From an uncultured delta proteobacterium (GTDB taxonomy: Bacteria > Desulfobacterota > Binatia > UBA9968), in assembly GCA_963737905.1 (NCBI GenBank), contig CAVTUQ010000025.1:298653-362652 (forward strand): DNA of 64,000 nt. The letters run 5' to 3'. The position numbers and the translations under genes were made by a program. The notes beneath the pieces were generated by a model. It was not told the DNA's origin. It made no database searches and saw nothing but the letters and a program-made list of their open reading frames with translations. Below, piece by piece: positions 9,269-57,424 of the stretch (the first letter of the stretch is position 1; every line of letters begins with the position of its first letter).

Positions 9269-10714
9269 ATGGATCAGGGAAAGATCCTGGTTACGGAAGA
9301 CGAAGAATCGCTGCGCTTTGTGCTGAAGAAGGCCCTCGAAAACGAAGGCTATTGGGTACAAACCACGGCCAACGGTAATGCGGCGCGCCAGTTACTGACG
9401 GAAACACATTTCGACGTCTCACTCATGGACATTAAATTGCCCGACGCGGATGGTCTAAGCTTGCTGAAAGAAATCAAAGAAGCAGGCATCGATACTGCGA
9501 TGATCCTGATGACCGCCCAGAACACCATGCGCAATGCCATCGGCGCCATGAAGAACGGGGCCTTCGATTATATTACCAAGCCCTTTGATCTTGATGAGGT
9601 CCTGGTCCTGGTCAAACGGGCCATCGATAGCCGCAAGTTAACCCGGGATTTCCGGGAACTCAAAGAAGAAGTGAAAAAACGTTTTGAGCCCGGCGTCAAT
9701 ATCATCGGCACGAGTTCCAACATGCAGAAGGTCTACAAGACCATCGGGCAGGTGGTCGATACCCATGCCACGATTTTGATTCAGGGAGAGAGCGGCACGG
9801 GCAAAGAGCTGGTCGCCAAGACGATTCATTATAATTCGCCGCGCTGGAATCAGCCGTTTGTCGCGATCAACTGCGCAGCCATCCCTCGTGACCTGTTGGA
9901 AAGTGAGCTCTTCGGTCATGAAAGGGGTGCCTTCACGGGCGCTCTGGATCGGCGCATCGGCAAATTCGAGTTGGCCGAAGGCGGGACGCTTTTCCTCGAT
10001 GAGGTGGGCGACATCCCGCTGGAGCTGCAAACGAAACTTCTTAGAGTCTTACAGGATCGCGAGTATAGCCGTGTCGGCGGCAGGGACGTCTTGAAGGCCG
10101 ATGTTCGGATTCTGGCGGCCACAAACCAGGATCTCGAGAGAGCGGTCAAAGAGAAGCGCTTCCGTGAAGACCTCTACTTTCGTCTCAAAGTGATTCCGAT
10201 TTACTTGCCGCCGTTGCGCGAGCGCAAGGGCGACATTCCGCTCTTGATCAGCTACTTCATCGACAAGATCAATCGCGAAATGGGCATCCAGATCTCTGGC
10301 ATTTCTCCGGAAGCCCAGAAGCTTTTGGAAGAACACACTTGGCCCGGCAACGTTCGCGAGCTGGAGAACACGCTTATCAGAGCGGCGGTGCTCTCCTCCG
10401 GCCCTATCTTGTTTCCCAAAGATTTTACTTTACAGAACAAACCGGCGATCGCGAACCTCGAGGTGGATCAATTGTCCTTCGAAGAGATTATCCGCCACAA
10501 ACTCGAAGACTACTTTCGCCGAACCGGTGACGTGGATTTGGATAACCTTTACTCTCTAGTCATCGAAAGAATCGAGCGGCCATTGATTGAGCTGACGCTC
10601 AAAAAAACTCGCGGCAATCAAATCCGCGCGGCGCAGATTCTCGGCATCAACCGAAACACGCTGCGCAAAAAGATCGTCGACCTGCGGATTGAGGTCAAAA
10701 GAGAAAGCAGTTAA
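9269..10714 (+). CDS. Sigma-54-dependent response regulator, NtrC-like
   Basis: REC domain, GESGTGKE, GAFTGA, Fis-type HTH (GNQIRAAQILGINRNTLRKK). Confidence 0.93.
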   Translation: MDQGKILVTEDEESLRFVLKKALENEGYWVQTTANGNAARQLLTETHFDVSLMDIKLPDADGLSLLKEIKEAGIDTAMILMTAQNTMRNAIGAMKNGAFDYITKPFDLDEVLVLVKRAIDSRKLTRDFRELKEEVKKRFEPGVNIIGTSSNMQKVYKTIGQVVDTHATILIQGESGTGKELVAKTIHYNSPRWNQPFVAINCAAIPRDLLESELFGHERGAFTGALDRRIGKFELAEGGTLFLDEVGDIPLELQTKLLRVLQDREYSRVGGRDVLKADVRILAATNQDLERAVKEKRFREDLYFRLKVIPIYLPPLRERKGDIPLLISYFIDKINREMGIQISGISPEAQKLLEEHTWPGNVRELENTLIRAAVLSSGPILFPKDFTLQNKPAIANLEVDQLSFEEIIRHKLEDYFRRTGDVDLDNLYSLVIERIERPLIELTLKKTRGNQIRAAQILGINRNTLRKKIVDLRIEVKRESS

Positions 10715-10721
10715 CCGCTCC

Positions 10722-11354
10722 ATGCCACAGCCTTCACGAAGGCTCCAACTACCGCCGCTTTACGCCATTCTCGATCCCGAGCAAACCAAGGGCCGCGCCA
10801 CCGAGACCGTCCTCCGCGAGCTTTTGGAAGGCGGGATTAAGCTGCTTCAATTGCGCGCCAAGGTACTAACCGCCGGCGACTTCCTCCAGCTCGCACGGGT
10901 CGCGCGCAGATTGACGCGGTCCTCCGGATGTAAAGTGATCGTCAACGACCGCGTGGACATCGCGCTTGCCTGTGACGCCGACGGTGTCCACCTTGGACAA
11001 GAAGATTTACCCCTATACGCCGCGCGGAAGTTGATGGGCGACAGCACGATCGGCATCTCGACCCATGCAGTGGAGCAAGCCAAAGAAGCTGAAGACGGCG
11101 GCGCTGACTACATCGGGTTCGGTCCGATGTTCGGATCCACGACGAAAGAAACAGGCTACAGCGCGCGCGGCCTGGAAATGCTTCGCCGAGTTCGTGCAGC
11201 AATCGCCCTCCCCATAGTCGCCATCGGCGGAATCACCGAAGCGAACGTTGTAGAAGTCTGGCAAGCCGGCGCCGATTCCGCAGCCATCATCAGCGATATC
11301 TTAGGCGCGGACGATATAGCGGATAAGGTCAAAAGAATTCTAGCTCTCCGTTAA
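10722..11354 (+). CDS. thiE: Thiamine-phosphate synthase
   Basis: QLRAK, IVNDRVD, GVHLGQED, STH, VAIGGI motifs. Confidence 0.95.
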   Translation: MPQPSRRLQLPPLYAILDPEQTKGRATETVLRELLEGGIKLLQLRAKVLTAGDFLQLARVARRLTRSSGCKVIVNDRVDIALACDADGVHLGQEDLPLYAARKLMGDSTIGISTHAVEQAKEAEDGGADYIGFGPMFGSTTKETGYSARGLEMLRRVRAAIALPIVAIGGITEANVVEVWQAGADSAAIISDILGADDIADKVKRILALR

Positions 11355-13066: not shown

Positions 13067-13084
13067 CTTTTGCGCTGCAACCGG

Positions 13085-13234
13085 ATCGTCGCCATCGGCG
13101 GCATTACCGAAGCGAACGTTGCCGAAGTCTGGCAAGCCGGCGCTGATTCCGCAGCCATAATCCGCGACCTCTTGGGCGCGGGCGATGTTGCGGATAAGGT
13201 CGGAAGGATTCTAGCTCTCCATCAAGCCCTGTGA
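13085..13234 (+). repeat. Diverged direct copy of the thiE 3' end (original 11214-11358)
   Basis: Encodes IVAIGGITEANVAEVWQAGADSAAIIRDLLGAGDVADKVGRILALHQAL*; roughly 80% nt identity by eye. Confidence 0.92.
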
Positions 13235-13266
13235 ATATGGTTTCACACCCTGCGCTGTCTCTATGA

Positions 13267-13405
13267 TTTACAATCGCCATACTCGGAGAGTAACATTTGG
13301 CTCCGCGGTTTAGTCCAACCCGTTTTATTCCCCGTCGCTCCTTCGACGATCTCTCCCAGGCTTGATTGCTTCCAGGCTTTGGGGATAAAACGCTATACGT
13401 TATAG
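13267..13405 (+). mobile_element. Orphan right end of the recombinase/IS91-like element
   Basis: TTTACAATCGCCATA...GGCTCCGCGGTTTAGTCCAAC CCGTTTTATTCCCC...GCTTGATTGCTTCCAGGCTTTGGGGATAAAACGCTATAC GTT matches 46274-46411. Confidence 0.88.
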
Positions 13406-13415
13406 CGCACTTGAG

Positions 13416-14030
13416 ATGGACGTGTACGGGAAATTTGCTGAGCTAAAGGAGGTAGAGCGCGAAGGCGTCGATTACTGCGTCTGTGTCGTCCGGAGAAAGC
13501 ACTCGTCCACCGTCGTCTTGGCGCCCCATGGCGGAGGTATCGAGCCCGGGACCTCGGAAGTGTCGAGGAAGATCGCGGAAGACGACTTGTCCTTAGCCAT
13601 ATTCGAAGGGAAGAAGTCCGTGGGCAACGCTCGCCTTCACATGACAAGCACGAACTTCGATGAGCCCCGGTGTCTGGAGCTCATCCAGGCTACCGACAGT
13701 GTGGTCGCAATCCACGGCGAAGAAAGCAAAGAACCAGTCATATTTCTGGGGGGTAGAGACAAGAAGCTGGGCGCGCGATTACGTGCAGCGTTGGAGAGGC
13801 ACGGGTACAAAGTCAAGGTGCACGAGAATCCTGAGCTACAAGGGATGGCTACCGCCAATGTCTGCAACCGCGGGCGCCAAGGGGCAGGCGTTCAACTCGA
13901 GCTGAGTTTTGGGTTGCGCGAGACCTTTTTCGAGTCATTGACAGCCGAAGGCCGGAAGAAGCCCATTGATGAACTGGCCAAGTTTGCAGGCGCGGTACGG
14001 GAGGGGTTGCGTGCCGCAGGTGCGCTCTAA
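13416..14030 (+). CDS. Poly-gamma-glutamate hydrolase family (DUF867/PghP-like) cassette gene
   Basis: APHGGGIEPGTSE, LHMTSTNFDEP, AIHG, N.CNRG...GVQLE; cassette ends GTTATAGCGCAC / GTGCGCTCTAAC are complementary. Confidence 0.85.
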   Translation: MDVYGKFAELKEVEREGVDYCVCVVRRKHSSTVVLAPHGGGIEPGTSEVSRKIAEDDLSLAIFEGKKSVGNARLHMTSTNFDEPRCLELIQATDSVVAIHGEESKEPVIFLGGRDKKLGARLRAALERHGYKVKVHENPELQGMATANVCNRGRQGAGVQLELSFGLRETFFESLTAEGRKKPIDELAKFAGAVREGLRAAGAL

Positions 14031-14065: not shown

Positions 14066-14461
14066 GTGAATCCACTATCACGAAAACTGACGACAGGTAC
14101 AATTGGGGAGCTTCTCGTTCAGCTTCGCCTGCTCCAGTTTGATGTCCAAGCGGCGCCACCACTCAAGGATTCTGGCAATGACCTCATCGCAGTCCGCGGG
14201 CATGCGATGCGGGCCATACAGATAAAGACTAGCGCGGGACATGCTTTTAGCGGCCGTCGTTTACCAAGATTTTATCACATCCTTGCGGCTGTTCGCCTCG
14301 TTGGCGATGGAGAAATTCTGCACCTGGATAAGTGCGAAGTTTTCCTGATTCCCAAGGAGGAGCTACCGACTGTTTCCCGGCAGTTCGCTCGTTTATTGGA
14401 TTATCGGTTGACACGGAGCTTGGTTGATCGGTTATTCAAGCCAAGAAGATTACACAGATGA
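14066..14461 (+). CDS. Small PD-(D/E)XK-like nuclease cassette gene
   Basis: GTIGELLV...NDLIAV...IQIKT; cassette ends GTTAAGCTCCA / TGGAGCCTAAC. Confidence 0.6.
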   Translation: MNPLSRKLTTGTIGELLVQLRLLQFDVQAAPPLKDSGNDLIAVRGHAMRAIQIKTSAGHAFSGRRLPRFYHILAAVRLVGDGEILHLDKCEVFLIPKEELPTVSRQFARLLDYRLTRSLVDRLFKPRRLHR

Positions 14462-14471
14462 GTGCCATGGA

Positions 14472-14561
14472 GCCTAACTTTTGCCCCAGCCGTTGCACCG
14501 ATTGCGTCCCTGTTGGACTTCGGACACCGTGGGCGGCGCGCCACTGAGCGTTACGTTAGGC
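14472..14561 (+). other. attC site
   Basis: GCCTAAC...GTTAGGC, 90 bp, between co-oriented ORFs. Confidence 0.8.
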
Positions 14562-15164: not shown

Positions 15165-16489
15165 CACTACTGTCCCAACGTTGAAATCGTGAACCGGTAA
15201 AAGCTATTAAAAAGACTTAACTTTTTGTTGAAAATGCAATTTATCGATTTGAAATCAAAAACGCTCCAAAGCCACACTTGCGTATCCCCGCGCAAGGAGA
15301 TGGCTAATGAATTCAGGAAAGACGGTGTTCTCTCAACTGATGGACTTTGTGCCCTCATACGAATTCCGCCTCTGTGTGGATCGCTATCACGGCAACCACA
15401 AAGTGAAAAGCTTTTCATGCTGGGACCAGTTTCTATCGATGGCCTTTGCTCAGCTTACCTATCGCGAAAGTCTCAGAGACATCGAGACCTGTTTGAGAGC
15501 TGCGGGCGAAAAGCTTTATCACATGGGCATTCGCGGCAAGGTCTCTCGCAACACCCTAGCTCACGCCAACGAGGTGCGCGACTGGAGAATCTACCAAGAC
15601 TTTGCCCAAGCCCTGATTCAAAACGCCAGAGAACTTTATGTGGGAGATCCTCTCCAAGTTCAGCTCGATCAAACCGCCTATGCCTTAGATTCGACCGTCG
15701 TCGATCTGTGTCTGACGCTATTCCCTTGGGCGAAGTTTCGAAAGCGCAAGGCCGCCGTGAAGCTTCATACCCTTTTGGATTTACGTGCCAGCATCCCCAC
15801 CACCGTGATTGTTACTACGGGAGCGGTCCACGATGTGAACATCATGGACGAGCTTTTTTGGGAGCCAGGGTCGATCTACGTGATGGACCGGGGCTACGTG
15901 GACTTCGCTCGGCTTTACCGCATCCAGCAAGATTCGGCCTTCTTTGTCACCAGAGCCAAGAAGAACTTTCGCTTCCAACGCCTTTACTCTCACCGAGTCA
16001 ACAAAGCCACCGGCCTTCGCTGCGATCAAACCGTGGTGCTTTGCGGTTTCTACGCTCAAAAAGATTATCCCGAAAAGCTGCGTCGCATCCGTTATTTCGA
16101 TCAGCAAACCAACAAAGCTCTGGTTTTTCTGACCAACAATTTTACCTTACCGGCTTTAATCATCGCCCAATTGTATCGATGCCGCTGGCAGGTGGAATTG
16201 TTCTTCAAGTGGATCAAGCAACACCTTCGTATCAAAGCCTTCTATGGCACCAGCGACAATGCCGTGAAGACACAGATCTGGATTGCCATCTCGATCTACG
16301 TGTTGGTGGCGATCATCAAAAAGCGCTTGAATCTCGATCACAGCTTATACTCGATTCTACAGATCCTGAGCGTGACAACCATGGAGAAAACTCCGCTCAT
16401 ACAAGTACTTTCGCAGTTCGATGAGTCGGAAAAAATGCTCGATAACAGCAAACAACTGATTTTGTTCAATTAACGTTGGGACAATAGTG
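15165..16489 (+). mobile_element. IS4-family insertion sequence, complete
   Basis: TIRs CACTACTGTCCCAACGTT / AACGTTGGGACAATAGTG; 9-bp TSD ATTTCTCAA at 15156-15164 and 16490-16498. Confidence 0.95.
15307..16473 (+). CDS. IS4-family DDE transposase (DUF4372 + DDE_Tnp_1)
   Basis: DST, MDRGY, YRCRWQVELFFKWIKQ (YREK) motifs. Confidence 0.95.
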   Translation: MNSGKTVFSQLMDFVPSYEFRLCVDRYHGNHKVKSFSCWDQFLSMAFAQLTYRESLRDIETCLRAAGEKLYHMGIRGKVSRNTLAHANEVRDWRIYQDFAQALIQNARELYVGDPLQVQLDQTAYALDSTVVDLCLTLFPWAKFRKRKAAVKLHTLLDLRASIPTTVIVTTGAVHDVNIMDELFWEPGSIYVMDRGYVDFARLYRIQQDSAFFVTRAKKNFRFQRLYSHRVNKATGLRCDQTVVLCGFYAQKDYPEKLRRIRYFDQQTNKALVFLTNNFTLPALIIAQLYRCRWQVELFFKWIKQHLRIKAFYGTSDNAVKTQIWIAISIYVLVAIIKKRLNLDHSLYSILQILSVTTMEKTPLIQVLSQFDESEKMLDNSKQLILFN

Positions 16490-16598: not shown

Positions 16599-17714
16599 GT
16601 GAGAGTTATGGTCACGAAGTTGGGCTTCTGCGATGGACTTCTCGTTTCGCTCGATCAGTTGAGCGCGTTGAAGCGATCCAAGGAGCTTATCTGTCTCCTG
16701 CTTGACAGAGGAACGTGGACTTTTTCTCTCATTGGACCCCCCGTCGGTGATGAAAGGCGCACCTCCATCTGGAACGTTGCGCGGGAGGCGGAGGCGAGCC
16801 CTGAAGACCGACAATATTGGGCTGAACTCCGGACCCTCTGGAGTCAACTAAAAAATTTCAGCCTCTCACCCTTCCTGGGCGATTCGATCGCCAACGGCGA
16901 AATCACGGGCCTAGACTACGCTTCCCTTCTCCAATCTTGGCGACCAAAATACGAGGAGTTGAGCGACGTGAAGCGACTCAAGGAGGTTGTCTGCCTCCTG
17001 CTTGACAGAGGAAAGTGGCACGATTTTCCTCTGGTTGAACCACCCGTCGGTGATGAAAGGCGCACCTCCGTCTGGAACGTTGCGCGGGAGGTGGAGGCGA
17101 GCGCCGAAGACCGCCAATATTGGGATGAACTACGGAGCCTCTGGAGTCAACTGCAATATGTCAGATCCTTCCTCTTACCCTTCCGCGCCCTGCCCCAAGT
17201 GGGCGATTCGATCGTCAACGGCGAAATCACGGGCGTAGACTACGCTTCCCTGCTCCACTCTTGGCGACCAGAATACGACGAGCCAGAGAGTCTCCACTCT
17301 AGGATCCACGAGGCCCTCGAAAGGTCGCAGACCGATCCAGTTCAGTTTGACTTTGCGGGATGCTGGCTTTTCAAGAACAACCGCTATTCGATAGAGGGCC
17401 ACTACGACAGCGAGGAAAAGAAACTCCTGGTCGTGGAGGAGTTCGATAAAGAAAGAAGGCACTTCGAGCGGCTACACCATAAGCACAGGTCAGCCGGTTC
17501 TGACAGCAACCAGCCAGGCCGTCCACGCGTGCCAGAAGCCGTCAGAATCGAGGTATGGCGGAGAGACGGGGGGCAATGTTCAAGGTGCGGAAGCCGAGAG
17601 AATCTCGAATACGACCACATTGTCCCTCTTGTGAGGGGAGGCAGCAACACAGCGAGGAATGTTGAACTCCTCTGCGAGAAGTGCAATCGCTCGAAGGCGG
17701 ATAAGATTGAGTAA
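16599..17714 (+). CDS. HNH endonuclease with a tandemly duplicated ~100-aa N-terminal unit
   Basis: C-terminal VWRRDGGQCSRCG...LEYDHIVP..RGGSNTARNVELLCEKCNRSK. Confidence 0.85.
   Translation: MRVMVTKLGFCDGLLVSLDQLSALKRSKELICLLLDRGTWTFSLIGPPVGDERRTSIWNVAREAEASPEDRQYWAELRTLWSQLKNFSLSPFLGDSIANGEITGLDYASLLQSWRPKYEELSDVKRLKEVVCLLLDRGKWHDFPLVEPPVGDERRTSVWNVAREVEASAEDRQYWDELRSLWSQLQYVRSFLLPFRALPQVGDSIVNGEITGVDYASLLHSWRPEYDEPESLHSRIHEALERSQTDPVQFDFAGCWLFKNNRYSIEGHYDSEEKKLLVVEEFDKERRHFERLHHKHRSAGSDSNQPGRPRVPEAVRIEVWRRDGGQCSRCGSRENLEYDHIVPLVRGGSNTARNVELLCEKCNRSKADKIE
16657..17282 (+). repeat. Two-copy tandem repeat (~300 bp unit) inside the HNH gene
   Basis: CCTGCTTGACAGAGGAA...CCCGTCGGTGATGAAAGGCGCACCTCC...TAGACTACGCTTCCC occurs twice. 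Confidence 0.93.
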
Positions 17715-43327: not shown

Positions 43328-43491
43328 CCGTTCCTACACCCAACTGATCAAAGCTACCTTTCAACCTCATTTTCTACCTTGTCACTCCTGGTATCGCATG
43401 GACCGCTGCCGCCACAAGGCACTCCTACTCAAGTTTGTGCGCGAGCGACGCCCCGGCGCCGGATCGAGCGCTATTCACCGCGCGGTTGACT

Positions 43492-43637
43492 TTTGCGACT
43501 CATCTCCTCGAAGACGGCTACGACATCCGAACCGTCCAGGAATTATTAGGGCATAAAGACGTTTCGACTACGATTTTTACACTCATGTGTTAAATCGTGG
43601 CGGCAAGGGTGTTTTCAGTCCCGCTGATCGGCTTTAA
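43492..43637 (+). pseudogene. intI: C-terminal remnant of integron integrase
   Basis: [27 protein letters not shown]-/[19 protein letters not shown], a typical IntI C-terminus with one indel. Confidence 0.88.
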
Positions 43638-43791
43638 TAACACCCTTGTTGCATGTGAGGGCGGTTCTTTCTTTGAGAAAGGTCATGAAAAAAAAGTCTA
43701 TGGGAGAGGATTTGGTAACCGCTGCCGTGCTACACCGCGGGCTGATATCTGGATACCCCGCCCCCGGCGCAGCGTTTGTCGGGAAAAGAGA

Positions 43792-43821
43792 TTGACAAGG
43801 CAGCGCTTGTTGGCGGATATT
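43792..43821 (+). promoter_or_regulatory. Candidate Pc-like sigma70 promoter
   Basis: TTGACA-N18-GATATT about 75 bp before the first GTT site. Confidence 0.35.
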
Positions 43822-43877
43822 GCAGCTGTTTTTGCTCTTACTCGATTGCGGATTCCTGGATACCCCGTCGGAAGAGC

Positions 43878-43901
43878 CGGCAGTTCACTTAATAGTTGAA
43901 C
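43878..43901 (+). other. Candidate attI core / left junction of the first cassette
   Basis: CGGCAGTTCACTTAATA G|TTGAAC fits GTTRRRY with an upstream GTT box. Confidence 0.55.
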
Positions 43902-44037
43902 TAAACCGCTTCGCGGTGGCACTGGTTATGTAAGGTCGGTGCCACTCACTCTACCTTTGTTTTTCATTGATCTTGCTAGCTGATTGTTTTTCTCTGAACT
44001 AGCGTAGTTCCCAAAATTAATCCAAGGAGGATTTTTT

Positions 44038-44886
44038 ATGGGAGCACTACGAGAAAAGATGGTTGGGGAGATGAAACTGCGCAACTTCGCGTCCAGGACA
44101 CAGAAGTCTTACCTTGCCGTGATGGTGGGGTTGGCCAAGCACTATCGTCAGTTTCCGGATCAACTGACGCAGGAGCAGATCCGCACCTACCTGTTGCATT
44201 TGCAGGAGCGGGGGCTGTCGAGCAGTTCGCAGAACGTGGCCATCTCGGGGCTACGGTTTTTCTATCAGCAGGTTTTGGGGTGGACCCAGGAGCAGATATT
44301 CTTGCCACCGAGAAAACGCACCTGGCGATTGCCGGAGGTGTTAAGTCCCAGGGAAGTGGAGCGATTGCTAGCTGCCGCAGTCAAGCTTCGCGATCGCTGT
44401 TTGCTAATGACGGCCTACTCGGCAGGGCTTCGGGTCAGCGAGCTGGTCCACCTCAAACTGAGCGATATCCATACCGAGCGGATGATGATCCGCGTAGAAC
44501 AGGGCAAAGGGAAAAAAGACCGTTACACCATTCTCTCCCAACGGCTGCTCGGTGAGCTGAAGAGATACAAGCAGACTTATCAACCGGTTTCGTGGGTCTT
44601 CTTTGGCAAGAACAGAAATTGCCCTTTGGATATCACTGCAGTCCAGAAAGTCTACAATCGAGCCAAGCAGAAAAGTGGCGTTGAAAAAGGCAAGGGCATT
44701 CATACATTGCGCCATTGTTTCGCAACCCATCTTCTTGAGGGCGGAGTGGACCTGTGCACGATCAAGACGCTGTTGGGGCATAACTCGCTTCAGAGTACCC
44801 AGCGCTACCTGCAGATTCGCCAGCCCAAGTTGAGCTCGACCACGAGTCCGTTAGACTTGCTCGATCTGCGTGACCCCCCGCTTTAG
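44038..44886 (+). CDS. Site-specific tyrosine recombinase (no IntI I2 insertion)
   Basis: SAM-like N-terminus; GLRVSE, GKGKKDR, HTLRH, LLGH, TQRY. Confidence 0.95.
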   Translation: MGALREKMVGEMKLRNFASRTQKSYLAVMVGLAKHYRQFPDQLTQEQIRTYLLHLQERGLSSSSQNVAISGLRFFYQQVLGWTQEQIFLPPRKRTWRLPEVLSPREVERLLAAAVKLRDRCLLMTAYSAGLRVSELVHLKLSDIHTERMMIRVEQGKGKKDRYTILSQRLLGELKRYKQTYQPVSWVFFGKNRNCPLDITAVQKVYNRAKQKSGVEKGKGIHTLRHCFATHLLEGGVDLCTIKTLLGHNSLQSTQRYLQIRQPKLSSTTSPLDLLDLRDPPL

Positions 44887-44898
44887 TCGGGCACGATC

Positions 44899-46074
44899 AT
44901 GCTGCTTGCCCGTCCAGGGCTGGTGGCAGGAGAGAGAAGCGGGGGCCCCGAACTGGCCGATATCTTTCGTAGTCACGGGCAGAGCTACCAACGAACGCAT
45001 CGCCTATCGGCCTCTGAGCAAAAAGTGATGCGGGCCGTTGAGGTCTGTCGCACGGCTGAATTGGGAGGGCATCTCAAGCAGTGCGACACTTGCGGCTTTG
45101 AGCACCCGACTTATAACTCCTGCCGTAACCGCCACTGTCCTAAATGCCAGTCGCTGGCCAAAGCCAAGTGGTTGGAGAAGCAGACCTCTGAGCTTTTGCC
45201 GGTGGGCTATTTTCATCTGGTCTTTACCTTGCCGCACCTTCTCAACGGCTTGATCCTGGCCAACAAAAAGATCCTGCTAAGCCTGCTGTTTAAAGCCGTC
45301 AGTGAAACGTTACTAGAGTTTGGCCAGACACGTCTTAAGGGAACCCTCGGAATCATCGCCGTGCTACACACCTGGGACCAAACGCTCAAGGATCATTTTC
45401 ATCTGCACTGTTTGGTTCCCGCCGGCGCTCTGTCTTCGAATCACAGCCGTTGGATTGGAGCACGGCCAAACTTTCTGTTTCCTGTCACCGCTCTGAGCCA
45501 GGTGTTTCAGGGAAAGTTCCTGGCTCTCTTACAACAGGCCTGTGATAAAGGAAAAATCCCGCCGGCCAACAACGAGATCAAAGCATCACGGCAAAAGAGC
45601 TGGGTGGTCTACGCCAAAAAGCCGTTCGGTTCTCCACAGACCGTGCTCGATTACCTCGGCCGCTATACCCACCGCGTGGCGCTGTCCAACGAGCGCATCC
45701 TTTCGGTCCAAAACGGTCAGGTCACCCTGAGTTATAGAGATCGAAAGGATGGCAACAGAAAAATGACCATCCCCCTTGACGCCCAGGAGTTCATCCGCCG
45801 CTTCCTGCTTCACGTCTTGCCCGATGGCTTCATGCGCATCCGTCACTTCGGGTTTTTAGCCAACCGCTCTAAAAAACAGGCCTTGGCTCAGTGTCGCAGA
45901 CTGCTAAAAATTGAGGCCGCGTTGCCGGAAACCCCGAAGGAGTCAGCTAAAGATTTGTTGCTGAGAATCACCGGCATCGATCTGAGTCGCTGCCCTTCCT
46001 GCCATCGGGGAACCATGATCGTCGTCGCTGAGCTGCCGCCGATTTCAAGCCCGTCTCAATGGGATTCTTCATGA
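44899..46074 (+). CDS. IS91-family (Y2 HUH) transposase with Zn-binding domain
   Basis: CDTC...SCRNRHCPKC; LHTW...HFHLH; YLGRY; RIRHFGFL. Confidence 0.95.
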   Translation: MLLARPGLVAGERSGGPELADIFRSHGQSYQRTHRLSASEQKVMRAVEVCRTAELGGHLKQCDTCGFEHPTYNSCRNRHCPKCQSLAKAKWLEKQTSELLPVGYFHLVFTLPHLLNGLILANKKILLSLLFKAVSETLLEFGQTRLKGTLGIIAVLHTWDQTLKDHFHLHCLVPAGALSSNHSRWIGARPNFLFPVTALSQVFQGKFLALLQQACDKGKIPPANNEIKASRQKSWVVYAKKPFGSPQTVLDYLGRYTHRVALSNERILSVQNGQVTLSYRDRKDGNRKMTIPLDAQEFIRRFLLHVLPDGFMRIRHFGFLANRSKKQALAQCRRLLKIEAALPETPKESAKDLLLRITGIDLSRCPSCHRGTMIVVAELPPISSPSQWDSS

Positions 46075-46318
46075 GAAAAACTCAAATGCTGATAAGCCCT
46101 TTTTACTGTTTACAGGCCGTCGTCGCACAGGTGTGTCTGCTGATACCCAAAAGTTGCTCCCATGCCCCATTGCACCGTAGCCATCAAACAAAATCTACCG
46201 ACCTCGATCTCAACCTTCTCCTGCTTCTCGATCTATCGCTCACACAGCACCACCCTCGGCACCGCTGTGCCACTTTACAATCCGCATAGCCGCAACCTCC
46301 GTGCGGCTCCGCGCTTTA

Positions 46319-46411
46319 GTCCAACACGTTTTATCCCCCCGTGGCGCTTGCCAGAATATTTTGGAGCTTGATTGCCTCCAGGCTTTGGGGATAAAACGCT
46401 ATACGTTAGGC
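46319..46411 (+). other. Atypical attC-like site at the element right end
   Basis: GTCCAAC a CGTTTTATCCCC...GGGGATAAAACG ctatac GTTAGGC. Confidence 0.75.
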
Positions 46412-46435
46412 AAGCCAAGGCAAGCCCAGTATGCG

Positions 46436-47011
46436 ATGACGACCTATCAACCCTACTCGGACTTTACTGCGCAGAGCCGGACGGTTTCGGCGCTCATGTC
46501 GATGTACGCGCAGCTTAAGCGTGGTACGTCGTCGACGACCGAACTCACACCCATTGTTGTATTTCTTGCGTTCTCAATCGAGTCGTACCTTAACTCAATT
46601 GGAGCACGAAAGCTCGCGATCTGGGACGAGTTGGAACGCCTTCCATGGAAAAACAAGATTGCAATACTCCACAAGACAGTCGGCAAATCGCCGGTGTGGG
46701 ATAAAGATCCGTTGCAGTTCGCAATTGAGGTGTTTTCATTGAGAGATAAACTTGCTCATGGGAAACCCGAACGGGTGGTCGGTCTGAAATTTAGAACCCA
46801 CGCAGAGGCGGCGCGGTATATCAATCGGCCAGAGTTGCACCCCGACTTGCAGCCACAGTGGTACAGGAAAATTACAAAGGACTGGGTGATGGATGCAAAG
46901 GAGCGTTTTAGACTCCTGATGATATACCTAAGTGGGATGTTCGATCTTCACGAGTCGGACCACTTGCTCACCTCCACTGGCGGCTTGCTTATCGACGATG
47001 AGAAAGATGCC
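46436..47011 (+). CDS. HEPN-like cassette protein; native stop displaced by the intron (now reads to 47146)
   Basis: AFSIESYLN and RDKLAH (Rx4H) motifs; ...EKDA GCC joins TAAC at 49014. Confidence 0.7.
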
Positions 47012-49013
47012 AGGAACGCCGGTTACCCGGCGCCCCCCGTACAGACCCCGGCGTGCAGTTTTTCCGCACCGGGTTCCTCGGTCCTACTCGCTTCCGCGCA
47101 AGACCTAGCCATCAAGCAAACACTCTCCGTCGCGGCATCTCGGTGATACACGGCTTGGCGATAGAGACACATTTAAGCACCCGCTCAAACTGCTCCCATG
47201 TGTAGCTTCGCCGCCAACTCCGACGGTTGAGCCACTTGAAGGCGCAGTTTATCGCCCACGCATAGAAGCGGTACAGCGAGTGCGAGTTGCCTCGCACACC
47301 ATAGTAATTGTAATGACCGCGTAACCGAGCGTTTAACCGCTCGAAAAATTCGCCTCCAGGCAAGTGTCGGTTGAGCTTGATCCATTCCTTGATCCTACGG
47401 CATGCAGCCTGCAATCTCTTGCGGGCCGTACGCCGCTTTACCCTCGGCACGCCTTGCCGATCGAGCTTCCACTGAAACTCGAAGCCCAGAAAGGCAAAAC
47501 GATGCTTCAGTCTCGGATGAAATCGACTGAAACGCAGGATGCGTGTCTTCTCCGAAGCCACCTCTAAGTTGAACTTCGCCAACCGCTTCGGTAGCACCCG
47601 ATAAAACCGCTCTGCGTCTTCCCGATAGCGGAATGCCCACACCGCATCATCAGCATAGCGACACATGATCGCCTCTCCCCGGCTCCGTGGCTTAACGACT
47701 TTCTCAAACCACAAGTCCAATGCGTAATGTAAGTACACATTGGCGAGCACCGGGGAAACAATCCCGCCTTGAGGAGTGCCGGTATCTGGATGAATGACCT
47801 CTCCATCTGTCTCCAAAATGCCAGCCTTCAGCCATTTCCGAATCAGGTCAAGAAAGGCCTGGTCGTCGATGCGCAGACTCAGCATCTTCAGCAGCCAGTC
47901 ATGGTCCATATGATCGAAAAAGCCTTTGACATCAGCCTCAACCACATACCCATAGACTCCGTATTGCAGGTCGAAGGTGAGGTCTCTCACCCCATCCAAC
48001 GCACTGCGCTCGGGCCGATAGCTATAACTGCAACTTAGGAACTCCTGCTCGTAAATCGCACTCAAAAGCTTCGCACAGGCCAACTGAACCAGCTTGTCTT
48101 CCAACGCCGCTATCCCTAACGGCCTCTCTTTACCATCCTCCTTCGCAATGTATCTTCGCCTCACCAACTTCGCCCGATAGCGCTTCGCTCTCAGTCGCTC
48201 TACCAGCGCCTCGATGTTAGCCTTGAGATTTCTCTCATAAGCCGCCACCGTGACCCCGTCCACACCCGCCGCGCATTCTGTTCAACTGCGGCCAGCACCA
48301 CATCACGTACTCAACGTTCAAGTACCGGTAAAGATCCTGAAATCGGTGGCACTTGTTGGCTTTCGCCTTGTTTGCTATTTCCCGCAGGAAGGTTGGCTCG
48401 TGTTCTCCCGGCCCAACTCTGTCCGGCACGAGTTGCCTATGCAGGTTTCGTAGTTCCGTCAGGTCCTTCCCCATGTACGTGGCTTTCCCACGCTCCGAGT
48501 ACTATGCCTGATAAGACCCCCTAAGCTTGCGGCGGGCTTTCCCTCTTACAGTACTTCTCCGCCTACCTCGCGGCGTTCCACTCGGGCGCTCTAGGTTCCA
48601 GCATAGCTCCGTCTCCGGGTTTCCCCTTGTGTGCCTCATTAGCTGTATACCCTACTCCCTAGTTTTGCTCCGCTTGGAACCCATGGGGCCTCCCGGGTTC
48701 TCCTAGCGTATCTCTCCCTGCATGCCATGGCCTGTGGACTCCGGCGGACCTCCACATCCTCGCCCTATCGGATGCTTCGTGTTGGCTTCGTGCACGTTAA
48801 AACACTCGCCGTCCGCAACAACCCTATCTCGAAGCTGTACCAGCTCTTCAGGACGCGCGGTCGTCCCTACGGCCTACAGGATTCTCTGTCTACGCTTCGC
48901 CTGTCTCGTTCGCCTTTCGGCTCCTCCACAGACGCAAGACTCGATACGGGCGGGTGGCTCACCCTTACCCGACGGGGACTCTCACCCCGTAAGATACGCC
49001 GAGCTTTGGCGGA
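47012..49013 (-). mobile_element. Group II intron inserted in the attC R'' box (GCC|TAAC)
   Basis: DV/DVI GAACCCGGTGCGGAAAAACTGCACGCCGGGGTC..GGGGGGCGCCGGGTAACCGGCGTTCC; 5' region with GGGGTGAGAGTCCCC; RT ORF. Confidence 0.9.
47112..48474 (-). CDS. ltrA: Group II intron reverse transcriptase/maturase, no En domain, frameshift near 48270, start uncertain
   Basis: KEDGKERPLGI, GTPQGG..SP.LAN.YLH, RYADD, YNYYG. Confidence 0.9.
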
Positions 49014-49091
49014 TAACGATCGGGTTGAGTCCGATCGTCCGCCTACTCGCTTGCGCTCGCGAGCTGCGTCCGCTCACCCTCAGCGTTAGGC
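49014..49091 (+). other. Remainder of the interrupted attC
   Basis: TAAC gatc GGGTTGAG...CTCACCC tcagc GTTAGGC. Confidence 0.8.
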
Positions 49092-50691: not shown

Positions 50692-51450
50692 CCAATAAGG
50701 ATTGAGACGACTTCCGAGTCGTTTCAATCCTTAGTTCAAGAAGCCCGTGGTGAGGCAACGATCAATATAAAGGGAAATGGTTGTGAGTGTGGTTTGCGCC
50801 GAAGGAAGTGAAGGTCAGATTGGCGGTATGAATCGGCGCGCTGTGAAGTTGCAGCGGTAGAGTTTACTTAACTTTTGTTTTTTTCTCGCCAGTCTCTCCG
50901 CAAAAGAGAGTATCAGAACAAGGTTGGTGGCAAACCTCGGCGCATCCCCATGAGCTTTCATGTAGCGGAGGAGAAACAGAGGGAGATGAGTATGGTGTTG
51001 AAGAGTTTTTTTAACCTGATCGACGCAGAATTTTGAGAGGCGGCAGCAGCGAGCGCAATTTGAGTAGCCCACCGCAGGTTGGGCAGGTAGCGCCATGAGG
51101 AGGATCGACCTCGGGCAGAGGCAGATCGAGAGCGAAACCGTAGCTTAATTCGATCAGGGCGCGAATCCGATCGAGTGCAATCTTGCAGTTGGGATTCATA
51201 AAGCCGTAGTAGCGGATCTTCATGAAACCAGTGGGCAGCACATGCTGCAAGAAACGGCGGATGAACTCCATGACATCAAGAGCCAAGATTCTGGAGCGCT
51301 GGCTGTGAGGCTTGCGATAGCGAACCAGCACGGTGCGGTCTTGGACGCCGAGGATGCGCGAGTTGGAGATCGCGACTTTGAAGACGTAGGGAGCGAGATA
51401 CTTAAGACAAGCTTCACTGGAAGAGACCGCTTGGCAGTTGACGTTCCAGG
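50690..51450 (-). mobile_element. Remnant of a second IS91-like element (3' part of transposase and right end)
   Basis: WNVNCQ...LKYLAPYVFKVAISNSRI...EFIRRFLQHVLP.GF.KIRYYGF, stop at 51011; end CTTGAAC-stem-loop-GTTATGT on the minus strand. Confidence 0.85.
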
Positions 51451-51529
51451 CGAATTGATTCGCCTCATTTCGGCCCGCAAGGCGGACCGGTCAGAGCGGG
51501 CCCAATACAGCAGACGGTGGAGACAATGA
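51449..51529 (+). pseudogene. C-terminal remnant of BrnT toxin
   Basis: GELIRLISARKADRSERAQY. Confidence 0.8.
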
Positions 51530-51752: not shown

Positions 51753-51853
51753 GCCTAACAAACCCACTGCACCCGACCACGACCTTGCTACAGTTCTGAA
51801 TGAGGGCTCAAGGCCAGAGTCTGGCCGCGTCGGGTGAGCGGGTGCCGTTAGGC
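51753..51853 (+). other. attC site
   Basis: GCCTAAC...CACCCGAC...GTCGGGTG...GTTAGGC. Confidence 0.88.
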
Positions 51854-56407: not shown

Positions 56408-57424
56408 CTACTCATCCAACCACATCAGCTTCGTCGGATTGTCTTTCAACATCACCTTGACTTCGTCGGGCTTGATGCCGAAGCCGAGGAGCGCGCGGAG
56501 GAAGACCCGCATACCGTCGACTGCATCCATGTGCAGCACCTGGCCGAAGTCGCTGCCTATAATGCAGCGATCAGGGCCGATCTCTTTGATCGTGCGGATG
56601 GTTTCCATTGGATCGGCGACGGGTTGATACAAACTCGGAATCATCGGCTGGCAGTAAGTGCCGACGTAGACACCGAGATCGCGGAGTTGCTTCATCTCGT
56701 CCAGTAAGAGTTTGTTCAACTCCAGCAGCGGATGATCCAAGGTCGCCCGGACACCGATATCTTTTGCCAGTTTCCCCAACGGTAACAGCTCCTGAAAATC
56801 GGTATGGCCAAATCCGATGCCGACTTTTTTTTCCGCCGCCATCTCCATGATCTCTTTCACCTCCGGCAAGACCTTGCCGTCCTCACTGCACAGCCGCACG
56901 CCTTCATGCTCCGGATGGCCGGCGCCGCGCCAGAAGCCGTAGGACGTGAAGGTCGGAAACCAGATCATCTTGAAGTTGGGATATTGGAGACCAACGCGCA
57001 CGTAATCCGGCCTCATGCCGAAACACATTCCCACGCCACCATAGACTTCGACGCGATTTGTCAATTCGCCTCGGGCGATCATATCGTCGATATAGCGCTG
57101 GGTCAGATAGGCCGACGTTGCGCTGATGTTCCAGTGGTCTTTGAACGCGATCGCGCGCATGCCGCACTTGGACGCCTCGATGGCGATCTGGATCATGTCC
57201 TGCGACCGATGAACGAAATCCGGAAACGCATGGATGTGACAATCGATGGCCCCCTGAAGCAGCTCGTTCTCGATCCCCGGATAAATCTTCAGCATCTCCG
57301 GGTTGTCTTTCAGCATCTGATAAAAATAATCCTTGGCGTTGAGCTCGCGCACCCGCGCCACGCTCAAAGTTCGGCCGACCATTAACTGTTCCGCGGCCGC
57401 CGCATCTGCAGCAAAATCACACAT
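56408..57424 (-). CDS. Amidohydrolase-fold protein (DUF6282-like)
   Basis: AIDCHIH.FPD, FKDH, GH, DHP, GSDFGQ. Confidence 0.75.
   Translation of the reverse strand: MCDFAADAAAAEQLMVGRTLSVARVRELNAKDYFYQMLKDNPEMLKIYPGIENELLQGAIDCHIHAFPDFVHRSQDMIQIAIEASKCGMRAIAFKDHWNISATSAYLTQRYIDDMIARGELTNRVEVYGGVGMCFGMRPDYVRVGLQYPNFKMIWFPTFTSYGFWRGAGHPEHEGVRLCSEDGKVLPEVKEIMEMAAEKKVGIGFGHTDFQELLPLGKLAKDIGVRATLDHPLLELNKLLLDEMKQLRDLGVYVGTYCQPMIPSLYQPVADPMETIRTIKEIGPDRCIIGSDFGQVLHMDAVDGMRVFLRALLGFGIKPDEVKVMLKDNPTKLMWLDE

Follow-up and report, generated by a model that had tools for sequence, protein, structure and literature searches.

An IS91-family element with a tyrosine recombinase gene at integron recombination points in a Binatia genome and its relatives

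The DNA analysed here, a window of 64,000 nucleotides (nt) from the genome of an uncultured Binatia bacterium (contig C25:298653-362652; assembly of 6.7 Mb in 46 contigs, 87% complete with 6.7% contamination), contains a two-gene mobile element downstream of the remnant of an integron integrase gene, intI (Table 1). Judged by its genes and ends, the element is an intact insertion sequence of the IS91 family and belongs to the ISAzo26-like subgroup, in which a tyrosine recombinase gene (int) is followed by the transposase gene tnpA. Its place is that of the first cassette in an integron with a dead integrase gene. The original prediction, made from the letters of the window, had described an intact two-gene unit that starts at G|TTGAAC in an attI-like context behind an intI remnant; all of these features are in place, and paralogues and empty sites in the same genome agree with them.

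Table 1. Features of the element and of its integron surroundings (positions in the window).
Feature	Position	Strand	Description
intI remnant	43477-43634	+	last ~55 codons, one frameshift
attI site	43635-43894	+	co-oriented type, ends AGTTCAC-TTAATA just before G|TT
Whole element	43895-46404	+	2510 nt; similarity to paralogues on contigs C1 and C22 and to 19 complete relatives is confined to this interval
Left end, terIS-like	43895-43920	+	GTTGAACTAAACC, then hairpin ACCGC-TTC-GCGGT at 43905-43917 (fold computed)
int	44038-44886	+	Xer-like tyrosine recombinase, 282 aa; Pfam Phage_integrase 1e-37 plus SAM-like N-domain
tnpA	44899-46074	+	IS91-family HUH-Y2 transposase, 391 aa
Conserved internal motif TTACAATCCGCATAG	46275-46289	+	solo right ends begin near the motif
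Subterminal inverted repeat of left end	46305-46325	+	ends in GTCCAAC 46319-46325; fits attC R'' consensus RYYYAAC
Right-end hairpin	46327-46398	+	12-bp perfect stem (46327-46338 with 46387-46398), 48-nt variable loop; stem kept in 19/19 aligned elements
CTATAC, oriIS terminus	46399-46404	+	invariant in relatives; equals last six bases of IS1294-like copy, CCTATAC|GTGC
GTTAGGC	46405-46411	+	integron core site, start of next cassette
Next cassette	46412-49091	+	open reading frame (ORF) 46433-47146 without family match; ends at GTTAGGC 49085-49091
Group II intron in 3' part of next cassette	47050-49084	-	reverse transcriptase/maturase gene 47112-48263 (TIGR04416, 333 bits); RF02005 at 48728-48982

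In profile searches, the int product stayed below the cut-offs of the XerA, XerC, XerD and IntI models. Its match to TIGR02249 (IntI) reached 164 bits against a cut-off of 265 and fell into two stretches that skip model positions 180-237, which places it outside IntI proper. Alignment with IntI revealed that three IntI insertions are absent from the protein, in line with the absence of an IntI insertion noted in the original prediction. The catalytic residues R132, K157, H222, R225, H248 and Y257 are intact and invariant in the alignment, and a C-terminal SPxDxL is common to the int product and IntI. TnpA scored 439.6 bits against NF033538 (cut-off 125) and matched Zn_Tnp_IS91 (PF14319, 8.6e-33) as well as Y2_Tnp (PF04986, 7.9e-56). 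Its translation contains a CxxC..CxxC zinc motif along with HFHLH and YLGRYTHR, which we take to be the HUH motif and the two catalytic tyrosines, respectively.

The limits of the element could be fixed by comparison within the same genome. Two 75%-identical paralogues (C1:58681-61155 and C22:19811-22259, tnpA broken in both) lose their similarity to the window copy at 43889/43897 and at 46407/46411. Contig C34 contains two further copies of the 260 nt upstream of the element, in which the element is missing and GTTAGGC or GTTAGCC follows directly; these copies represent empty sites and thereby fix the left limit at TTAATA|GTT. The left junction in the window reads TTAATA|GTTGAAC, with the G at 43895. 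Since GTT is common to element and target, the limits could equally be set at 43896-46405 or 43898-46407; GTT stands on both sides of the element, an arrangement in which a 3-bp duplication and a shared crossover core look alike. Lying between attI and the next cassette and bounded by G|TT, the element has in this respect the limits of a gene cassette. A third, more diverged int-tnpA pair (C19 ~192863-195268, minus strand) starts with GTTCAAGTAAGCCGC directly behind a canonical-looking attC (GTCTAAC...AATG|GTT), and GTTATGC comes next behind its right end. Pieces nearly identical to the element occur widely in soils. Contigs of four soil metagenome runs, each from a different study, cover it piecewise, diverge directly after 46407, 46411 or 46412 and before 43885, and provide no depth beyond 46497, and 19 soil (or unlabelled) runs from 8 studies contain 41-47% of the sampled words of window positions 43500-46800.

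The integron context is likewise borne out by similarity. A tblastn search with the intact IntI of the same genome (C7:226354-227478) matches the remnant with residues 311-343 and 346-363, and TIGR02249 matches ORF 43435-43593 at 4.7e-14. The attI of the window aligns with ~210 nt behind an intact, co-oriented intI in locus L021, which belongs to a Binatia metagenome-assembled genome (MAG), and with the two empty C34 copies; the L021 IntI is 70% identical to the C7 enzyme. GTTAGGC occurs 11 times in the window as compared to 4.6 expected, a count that did not arise in any of 100 shuffles.

The right end reads GTCCAAC (46319-46325), A, the 12-bp stem, CTATAC and GTTAGGC, that is, with the perfect stem one nucleotide behind GTCCAAC and six nucleotides before the start of the next cassette, as the original prediction had it. 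Also as claimed there, the reverse complement of GTCCAAC matches GTTGAAC at six of seven positions. An oriIS-like motif had moreover been proposed to lie inside the right end. This motif, TTACAATCCGCATAG, is present at 46275-46289 and was found in 18 of the 19 aligned right ends (L018 is cut there) as well as in ISAzo26 and in Sinorhizobium and Rhizobium relatives, and it weakly resembles the termini of IS91 and of an IS1294-like copy. However, it is not the sole ori-like sequence, as the terminal CTATAC|GT is itself a canonical ori terminus: the window element ends CGCTATAC|GTTA, IS91 ends ...TTTAAATTCCTATC|, and an IS91-family copy in an Escherichia coli plasmid, presumably IS1294 (hence 'IS1294-like'), ends ...TTCAATTTCCTATAC|GTGC. 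According to the available text of PMC13181058, the terIS of IS91-family elements lies at the left and comprises a subterminal palindrome plus a cleavage tetranucleotide (GTTC in IS801 and IS1294), whereas the oriIS lies at the right, has subterminal palindromes and adjoins a GTTC/CTTG target; target and ter tetranucleotides of IS801 and IS1294 are alike, and only the bottom-strand circle inserts. By this description the left end of the window element, GTTG plus a hairpin, is a look-alike of terIS, and its right end carries both an oriIS and the adjoining target.

To see how far these features extend, relatives were collected in two ways. Scanning one genome per species with the transposase yielded 23 loci (62-89% identity) from MAGs of Syntrophobacteraceae, Binatia, Nitrospirae, 'Deltaproteobacteria' and Anaerolineales. 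int precedes tnpA in 21 of them (tblastn), the other two (L028, L034) having neither an int nor a left-end match, and both genes are intact in most loci. The left end reads GTTGAAC in 17 and TTTGAAC in two of 20 loci and is truncated in one; the right end GGGATAAAACGCTATAC is invariant in all 16 loci that possess it. The left flanks are non-random: eight end ...CA(C/A)TTA(A/C)TA| as in the window, most others share GTATA(C/T)T...|, and one class matches the sequence just behind the intact intI of the window genome. Searching for the ends themselves recovered a left-end 22-mer at 71 places in 37 of 401 genomes of the class (reversed control: 0) and a right-end 16-mer in 29 of the 401, 27 of which belong to the window's own family (63 genomes in the sample). 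Seven sites occur in both collections (L022/L060, L013/L070, L014/L061, L023/L064, L027/L087, L017/L083 and L015/L067), and the flank counts that follow leave out the rows of the unpublished genomes G393 and G351 with their loci L061 and L069, which support no claim made here.

Right flanks were tallied by hand for 65 public junctions, three of them from the window genome, which come from related genomes and are not independent trials. GTT follows the element at 55 of these, extended to GTTA at 44, to GTTG at 5 and to GTTC or GTTT at 3 each. GTTAG was found at 35 junctions and the full integron consensus GTTRRRY, which a random heptamer fits with a frequency of 1/1024, at 25, including GTTAGGC at 12 and GTTAGAC at 7. 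On the left side, a same-strand IntI match ends 168-211 nt upstream of the junction at 10 of 68 oriented loci (9 public; one weak), for many of which only ~400 nt of flank had been fetched; the window and L018 add two further cases, and clustering ties additional left flanks to flanks that adjoin intI. The element is carried by at least four attI sequence families, and each of these follows a diverged intI of its own; identities to the C7 IntI are 70%, 61% and 49%. Clear attC sites form the left flank at L014, L042, L068, L090 and the diverged C19 copy. A home-made attC scan (RYYYAAC...GTTRRRY plus fold) was not specific, with 342 matches genome-wide, and under stricter settings 5 of 66 junction flanks were called versus 4 of 225 control GTT sites, one call being false, so that the attC counts are lower bounds. 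Within GTT, the first position at the left varies in ~6 independent loci and the second in 1-2, and each position at the right varies in ~4 of 65, a difference too weak to place the crossover at G|TT.

Thus, attI is the most frequent identifiable insertion site, and the data support a strong enrichment of insertion sites for integron recombination points. The clade, which is common in soil Syntrophobacteraceae, Binatia and related MAGs, is specialised for such points. The check proposed in the original prediction, namely whether conservation among homologues ends at GTT on both sides and their sites are enriched for attI and attC, thereby came out positive, with attI prevailing, some attC and GTTRRRY right flanks, and the clade may fairly be called a 'rolling-circle parasite of integrons'. 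In the left flanks of L071 and L055 in genome G274, the attI-like region consists of ~190-nt repeats that each contain GTGATAGGCTGC...GCAAGGGTTG. In other genomes, GATAGGCCG words recur among the class-A attI sites and may be binding sites of the integrase.

For each of 19 complete elements, the right end was joined to the left end in silico; folding of the joined sequences with RNAalifold predicted that the left end pairs with its inverted repeat at 46305-46325: CGCGGTTTAGTCCAAC pairs with GTTGAACTAAACCGC, an 11-12-bp stem is nested inside, and CTATAC forms a one-sided bulge. The predicted structure is attC-like in that an AAC/GTT box is followed by a spacer and a second stem containing GTTTTAT/ATAAAAC. 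The same pairing would also serve a pure rolling-circle mechanism, as it would bring the ter cleavage site beside the 5' end of the displaced bottom strand.

Comparison with known elements helps to separate what is general in this structure from what is special to the clade. ISAzo26, an IS91-family element of Aromatoleum aromaticum EbN1 plasmid 2 (NC_006824), has the same int-tnpA order (transposase 47%, Int 46% identical), a left end GTTGGACTAAACCGC plus hairpin as in the window element, and a right end in which the CCCCATAG motif is followed by GTCCAAC, which reverse-complements its left end exactly, then by a long hairpin and finally by a short tail. Relatives on Rhizobium and Sinorhizobium plasmids share the gene pair and the end plan (transposase ~47%, Int 41-46% identical). 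Adjacent same-strand int-tnpA pairs are annotated in NC_006824, NZ_CP021216 and NC_008381/2/4, and their homologous ends join them to the window element in one subgroup. As ISAzo26 and its kin share the end plan, the attC-like look is ancestral to the Int-bearing subgroup and does not stem from a captured attC. In contrast to the window clade, which ends in CTATAC and sits at attI or attC, ISAzo26 and the Rhizobium/Sinorhizobium copies are not in integrons. Target choice through base pairing of GTCCAAC was considered and is not favoured, GTTA being far commoner than GTTG and the Rhizobium flanks mismatching their own motif.

IS91, IS801 and IS1294 have in common with the element the HUH-Y2 transposase, an oriIS at the right, a terIS at the left and a GTTC-type target at oriIS. 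However, they possess no recombinase gene (IS91 has orf121 in its place) and no inverted-repeat-plus-hairpin module beyond the ori motif, and they have a 4-nt target and no link to integrons. In a small sample, the module was present in all four Int-bearing lineages examined and in neither of two Int-less ones (IS91 and the IS1294-like copy).

Known invaders of integrons include elements of the IS1111-attC group, which have an IS110-family transposase, and group IIC-attC introns, which have a reverse transcriptase; both are specialised for integron sites. These enter the attC hairpin, whereas the window clade enters the G|TT crossover point of attI. CTX phage is integrated by XerCD through single-strand recombination of a folded hairpin. 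With CTX phage and the cassettes moved by IntI, the element shares the G|TT crossover, the first-cassette position and a folded single strand with an AAC/GTT box, and the bottom-strand circle of IS91 corresponds to the recombinogenic bottom strand of attC. It differs from both in its non-canonical hairpin spacing, in a Xer-like recombinase without the IntI insertions and in a circle made by an HUH enzyme rather than by excision. The two integron-specific groups are mentioned in PMC9229058, and CTX phage with XerCD in PMC9345347. IS91-like elements have been seen near attC before: the available text of PMC12772301 reports attC sites at or after each copy of ISCR28 next to sul4 and suggests passive shuffling as a cassette component (data not shown there), and that of PMC9229058 reports an attC at or right after the end of ISShvi3 in a Shewanella integron, read as a possible cassette component. 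In these texts both are passing mentions that do not extend to the ends, to attI targeting or to the recombinase, and the likeness to our element is one of description, not of sequence.

How the element may reach integron sites can be pictured as follows. TnpA would nick the right terminus at CTATAC|GTT (oriIS), the bottom strand would be peeled off by rolling-circle replication up to the left end, GTTGAAC plus hairpin (terIS), and the displaced strand would be closed into a single-stranded circle, as family knowledge suggests. Within the circle, the left end, its copy at 46305-46325 and the 12-bp stem, whose complementarity is observed, are predicted to form a long attC-like hairpin. A tyrosine recombinase would then join the hairpin, by exchange of a single strand, to a G|TT core, that of attI or more rarely that of attC, and replication would finish the reaction, as for cassettes and CTX phage. 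We lean slightly towards the view that such a tyrosine-recombinase step inserts the element at integron sites. It is favoured by flanks that fit the integron consensus over 7 nt, by insertion exactly at the attI crossover and by the prevalence of attI over attC, and furthermore by the Int-linked hairpin module and by two 21-nt remnants with N|TT limits (see below). Preference for attI over attC and the core consensus match known reactions of the IntI type. The 7-nt consensus also exceeds the 4-nt IS91 target given in the available text of PMC13181058.

As to the enzyme, the element's own Int is a tentative candidate: it is favoured because it is catalytically complete by sequence, has the SPxDxL of IntI and co-occurs with the hairpin module, and it is disfavoured by the absence of the IntI insertions and by Rhizobium homologues that have no site preference. 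Host IntI, known for cutting exactly at the G|TT site, appears a shade more doubtful; against it, no IntI was found at E<=1e-60 in 10 of 21 public family genomes that bear the right end, and two of the ten are 98-99% complete. In the public genomes of the family that both searches covered (right end and IntI), IntI was found in 11 of 21 with the element versus 9 of 28 without, a weak signal, and the genomes are interrelated. The original prediction that the element's own recombinase integrates the circle at attI and attC cores stands with respect to the link with integron sites, but the evidence does not single out Int over IntI or TnpA, as the ends are ordinary for IS91 and Int is not special to integrons. 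Its further suggestion of a substitute for the dead IntI finds no support, as an intact intI is present on C7 of the same genome and long, intact-looking intI matches adjoin the element in L021 and L049.

Several observations weigh against the proposed mechanism. The ends of the element are fully explained by classical IS91 chemistry. The hairpin departs from a canonical attC (R''-L''...L'-R' with ~5-nt spacers in both arms and extrahelical bases): on inspection, its spacers measure 1 and 6 nt, the 12-bp stem is perfect and extrahelical bases are not evident, a deviation that had been pointed out from the outset, and the int product lacks the very IntI insertions that bind extrahelical bases. 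The fold energy of the right-end bottom strand is ordinary (z = -1.16), and the junction stems are nearly invariant and so give no covariation support. Roughly 30 left flanks of the class-wide sample, mostly from other families of the class, could be assigned to neither attI nor attC, and the lack of a detectable IntI in nearly half of the element-bearing family genomes counts here as well. Neither a back-joint nor a skip of the whole element was seen in the contigs of the four soil studies, a kind of data that cannot show circles. Finally, the flanks of three identical Int-bearing copies in R. johnstonii 3841 are unrelated on either side and follow no GTT rule, which indicates that integron targeting is a speciality of the window clade and not of Int-bearing elements generally.

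It is possible, if on the whole improbable, that the transposase acts without a recombinase. As the element ends are ordinary IS91-family ends, TnpA alone could explain the GTT junctions: in a classical IS91 rolling circle it would insert the bottom-strand circle, the TnpA of this clade reading an extended GTTC-type target, RYYYAAC on the bottom strand, that equals the element's own left-end word, with Int in an accessory role such as termination or multimer resolution (cf. Orf121 of IS91). The identity of the terminal CTATAC|GT with the IS1294-like terminus, the terIS-like GTTG and subterminal hairpin at the left and the precedent of IS801 and IS1294, whose target resembles the ter word and of which only the bottom-strand circle inserts (PMC13181058, available text), all speak for this. 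So do the Int-bearing Rhizobium relatives, which act as ordinary insertion sequences, the genomes that contain the element without detectable IntI, and the abundance of 5'-truncated copies and solo right ends, with right ends outnumbering left ends as expected if everything starts at ori. However, a degenerate 7-mer would occur thousands of times per genome, yet insertions lie exactly at the attI crossover, 168-211 nt behind intI, at no fewer than 11 loci, and attI is used more than attC although attC sites are far more numerous. Moreover, GTTA prevails over GTTG (44 versus 5 of 65) although GTTG would fit the ter word and GTCCAAC better, and a rolling-circle process would hardly yield the 21-nt remnants with their N|TT limits.

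Part of the site preference could instead be inherited, if one-ended run-through past the left end copied attI and a stub of intI so that an attI-like flank travels with the element. We regard such co-mobilisation as quite unlikely. It would account for the many attI-like flanks preceded by no intI or by just its last codons (window, L013, L017, L025, L030), for three elements behind similar attI-like flanks in one genome (G274), for flank similarity that ends at variable distances (59-231 nt) and for a GGTTGAC word at the break of the window's intI remnant. Yet attI copies free of the element exist in the same genome, at least four attI families, each with its own diverged intI, carry the element, the right flank is mostly a cassette start, and the attC insertions would be left unexplained. 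Least probable is that the two genes are mere cargo of an ordinary cassette moved by host IntI alone, the right end happening to be an attC and the transposase taking no part in the spread. The first-cassette position and the G|TT limits would be expected of a cassette, and a similar suggestion is printed for ISCR28 (PMC12772301) and ISShvi3 (PMC9229058), as far as the available texts go. But relatives outside integrons have the same end architecture, both genes are intact in most of the 23 loci, the attC geometry is non-canonical, and truncated copies retain the ori end.

Copies that have lost their left part are frequent. Right ends outnumber left ends by 10 to 0 in genome G389 (L093, L094), 7 to 3 in G237 and 6 to 2 in G345, and several right ends in the family retain no more of tnpA than its last 45-120 codons. 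Copies of this kind, 5'-truncated but with the ori end intact, fit abortive rolling-circle copying; no common word was found at their left boundaries in G389. Solo right ends start near the internal motif at 46275-46289 (window ~13264, L094, L100). The one in the window (13240-13404) is 83% identical, ends CTATAC|GTTATAG and directly follows the relic 3' end of a second thiE gene (13073-13234; intact thiE at 10689-11354). Directly behind it lie cassette-like ORFs (13416-14030, poly-gamma-glutamate hydrolase; 14066-14461) and then an attC-like site (14472-14561); here, a cassette array seems to start at a bare insertion sequence end and not at attI. At the other extreme are two independent right-end remnants of ~21 nt, GGG(G)ATAAAACGCTATAC, at the right junction of L022 and at L095 (G389:C496 ~1348). 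They are flanked by GTT on each side (N|TT limits), both start at an internal TTT[A/G]GGG, and the L095 remnant lies directly behind an attI. The TTT[A/G]GGG word looks like a secondary (pseudo-) integron core site.

A bolder version of the recombinase-driven mechanism, which we consider unlikely, is that a rolling-circle element carries, in Int and the inverted-repeat-and-hairpin module, a self-contained device for integron-like single-strand recombination, in which TnpA makes the circle and Int inserts it at G|TT by its folded junction. The solo right ends (~150 nt), which lie beside unrelated genes and immediately ahead of cassettes, would then be ready-made attC sites and a route to cassettes, possibly kin of the ancestor of attC and IntI; if so, ordinary genes could acquire attC from solo right ends and become cassettes. 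As IS91/ISCR-type elements can carry neighbouring DNA and solo right ends front cassette arrays, a route by which genes gain attC can be tested. Furthermore, an IS91-type rolling-circle clade that lands on the attI crossover would be a third, mechanistically different kind of integron invader beside the IS1111-attC elements and group IIC introns, would join two systems based on single-stranded DNA, namely HUH rolling-circle transposition and integron/Xer recombination of folded strands, and offers a testable function for the unexplained recombinase gene of the ISAzo26-like subgroup. The element and its close relatives are a little-described integron parasite, or perhaps partner. They probably silence arrays, since insertion at attI cuts the cassettes off from transcription on the intI side. 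In the literature searched, we found no description of IS91-type elements targeting attI, only the remarks on ISShvi3 and ISCR28; subscription journals, ISfinder/TnPedia and supplements may hold more.

The neighbourhood of the element offers further observations. At 43475-43492, a GGTTGAC directly precedes the intI remnant and resembles the left-end word GTTGAAC; a run-through rolling-circle event might have ended at this word as a pseudo-termination site. To the left of the remnant, the sequence does not fold like an attC (z = 0.01). In the next cassette, the group II intron lies just before GTTAGGC (49085-49091), so that one small array hosts two different integron-targeting mobile elements; a position just before a core site is usual for attC-targeting group IIC introns. 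The cassette region also contains a fragment of another IS91-family transposase (51152-51469, minus strand, that is in opposite orientation; 108 bits over model positions 215-322), just before a further attC-like site at 51753-51853. The empty sites in contig C34 of the window genome (G000; ~45597-45772 and 68768-69031) are class-A attI copies with no adjoining intI that run into GTTAGCC or GTTAGGC, and attC-like candidates follow at 46948-47005, 57148-57205 and 74357-74411. The genome thus has one intact intI, on C7, and at least three attI-plus-cassette modules without intI. Behind the first cassette-like stretch of the window, a DDE transposase gene (15307-16473, IS4-like, DUF4372) and an HNH endonuclease gene (16599-17714) mark this part of the contig (15307-17714) as rich in mobile DNA.

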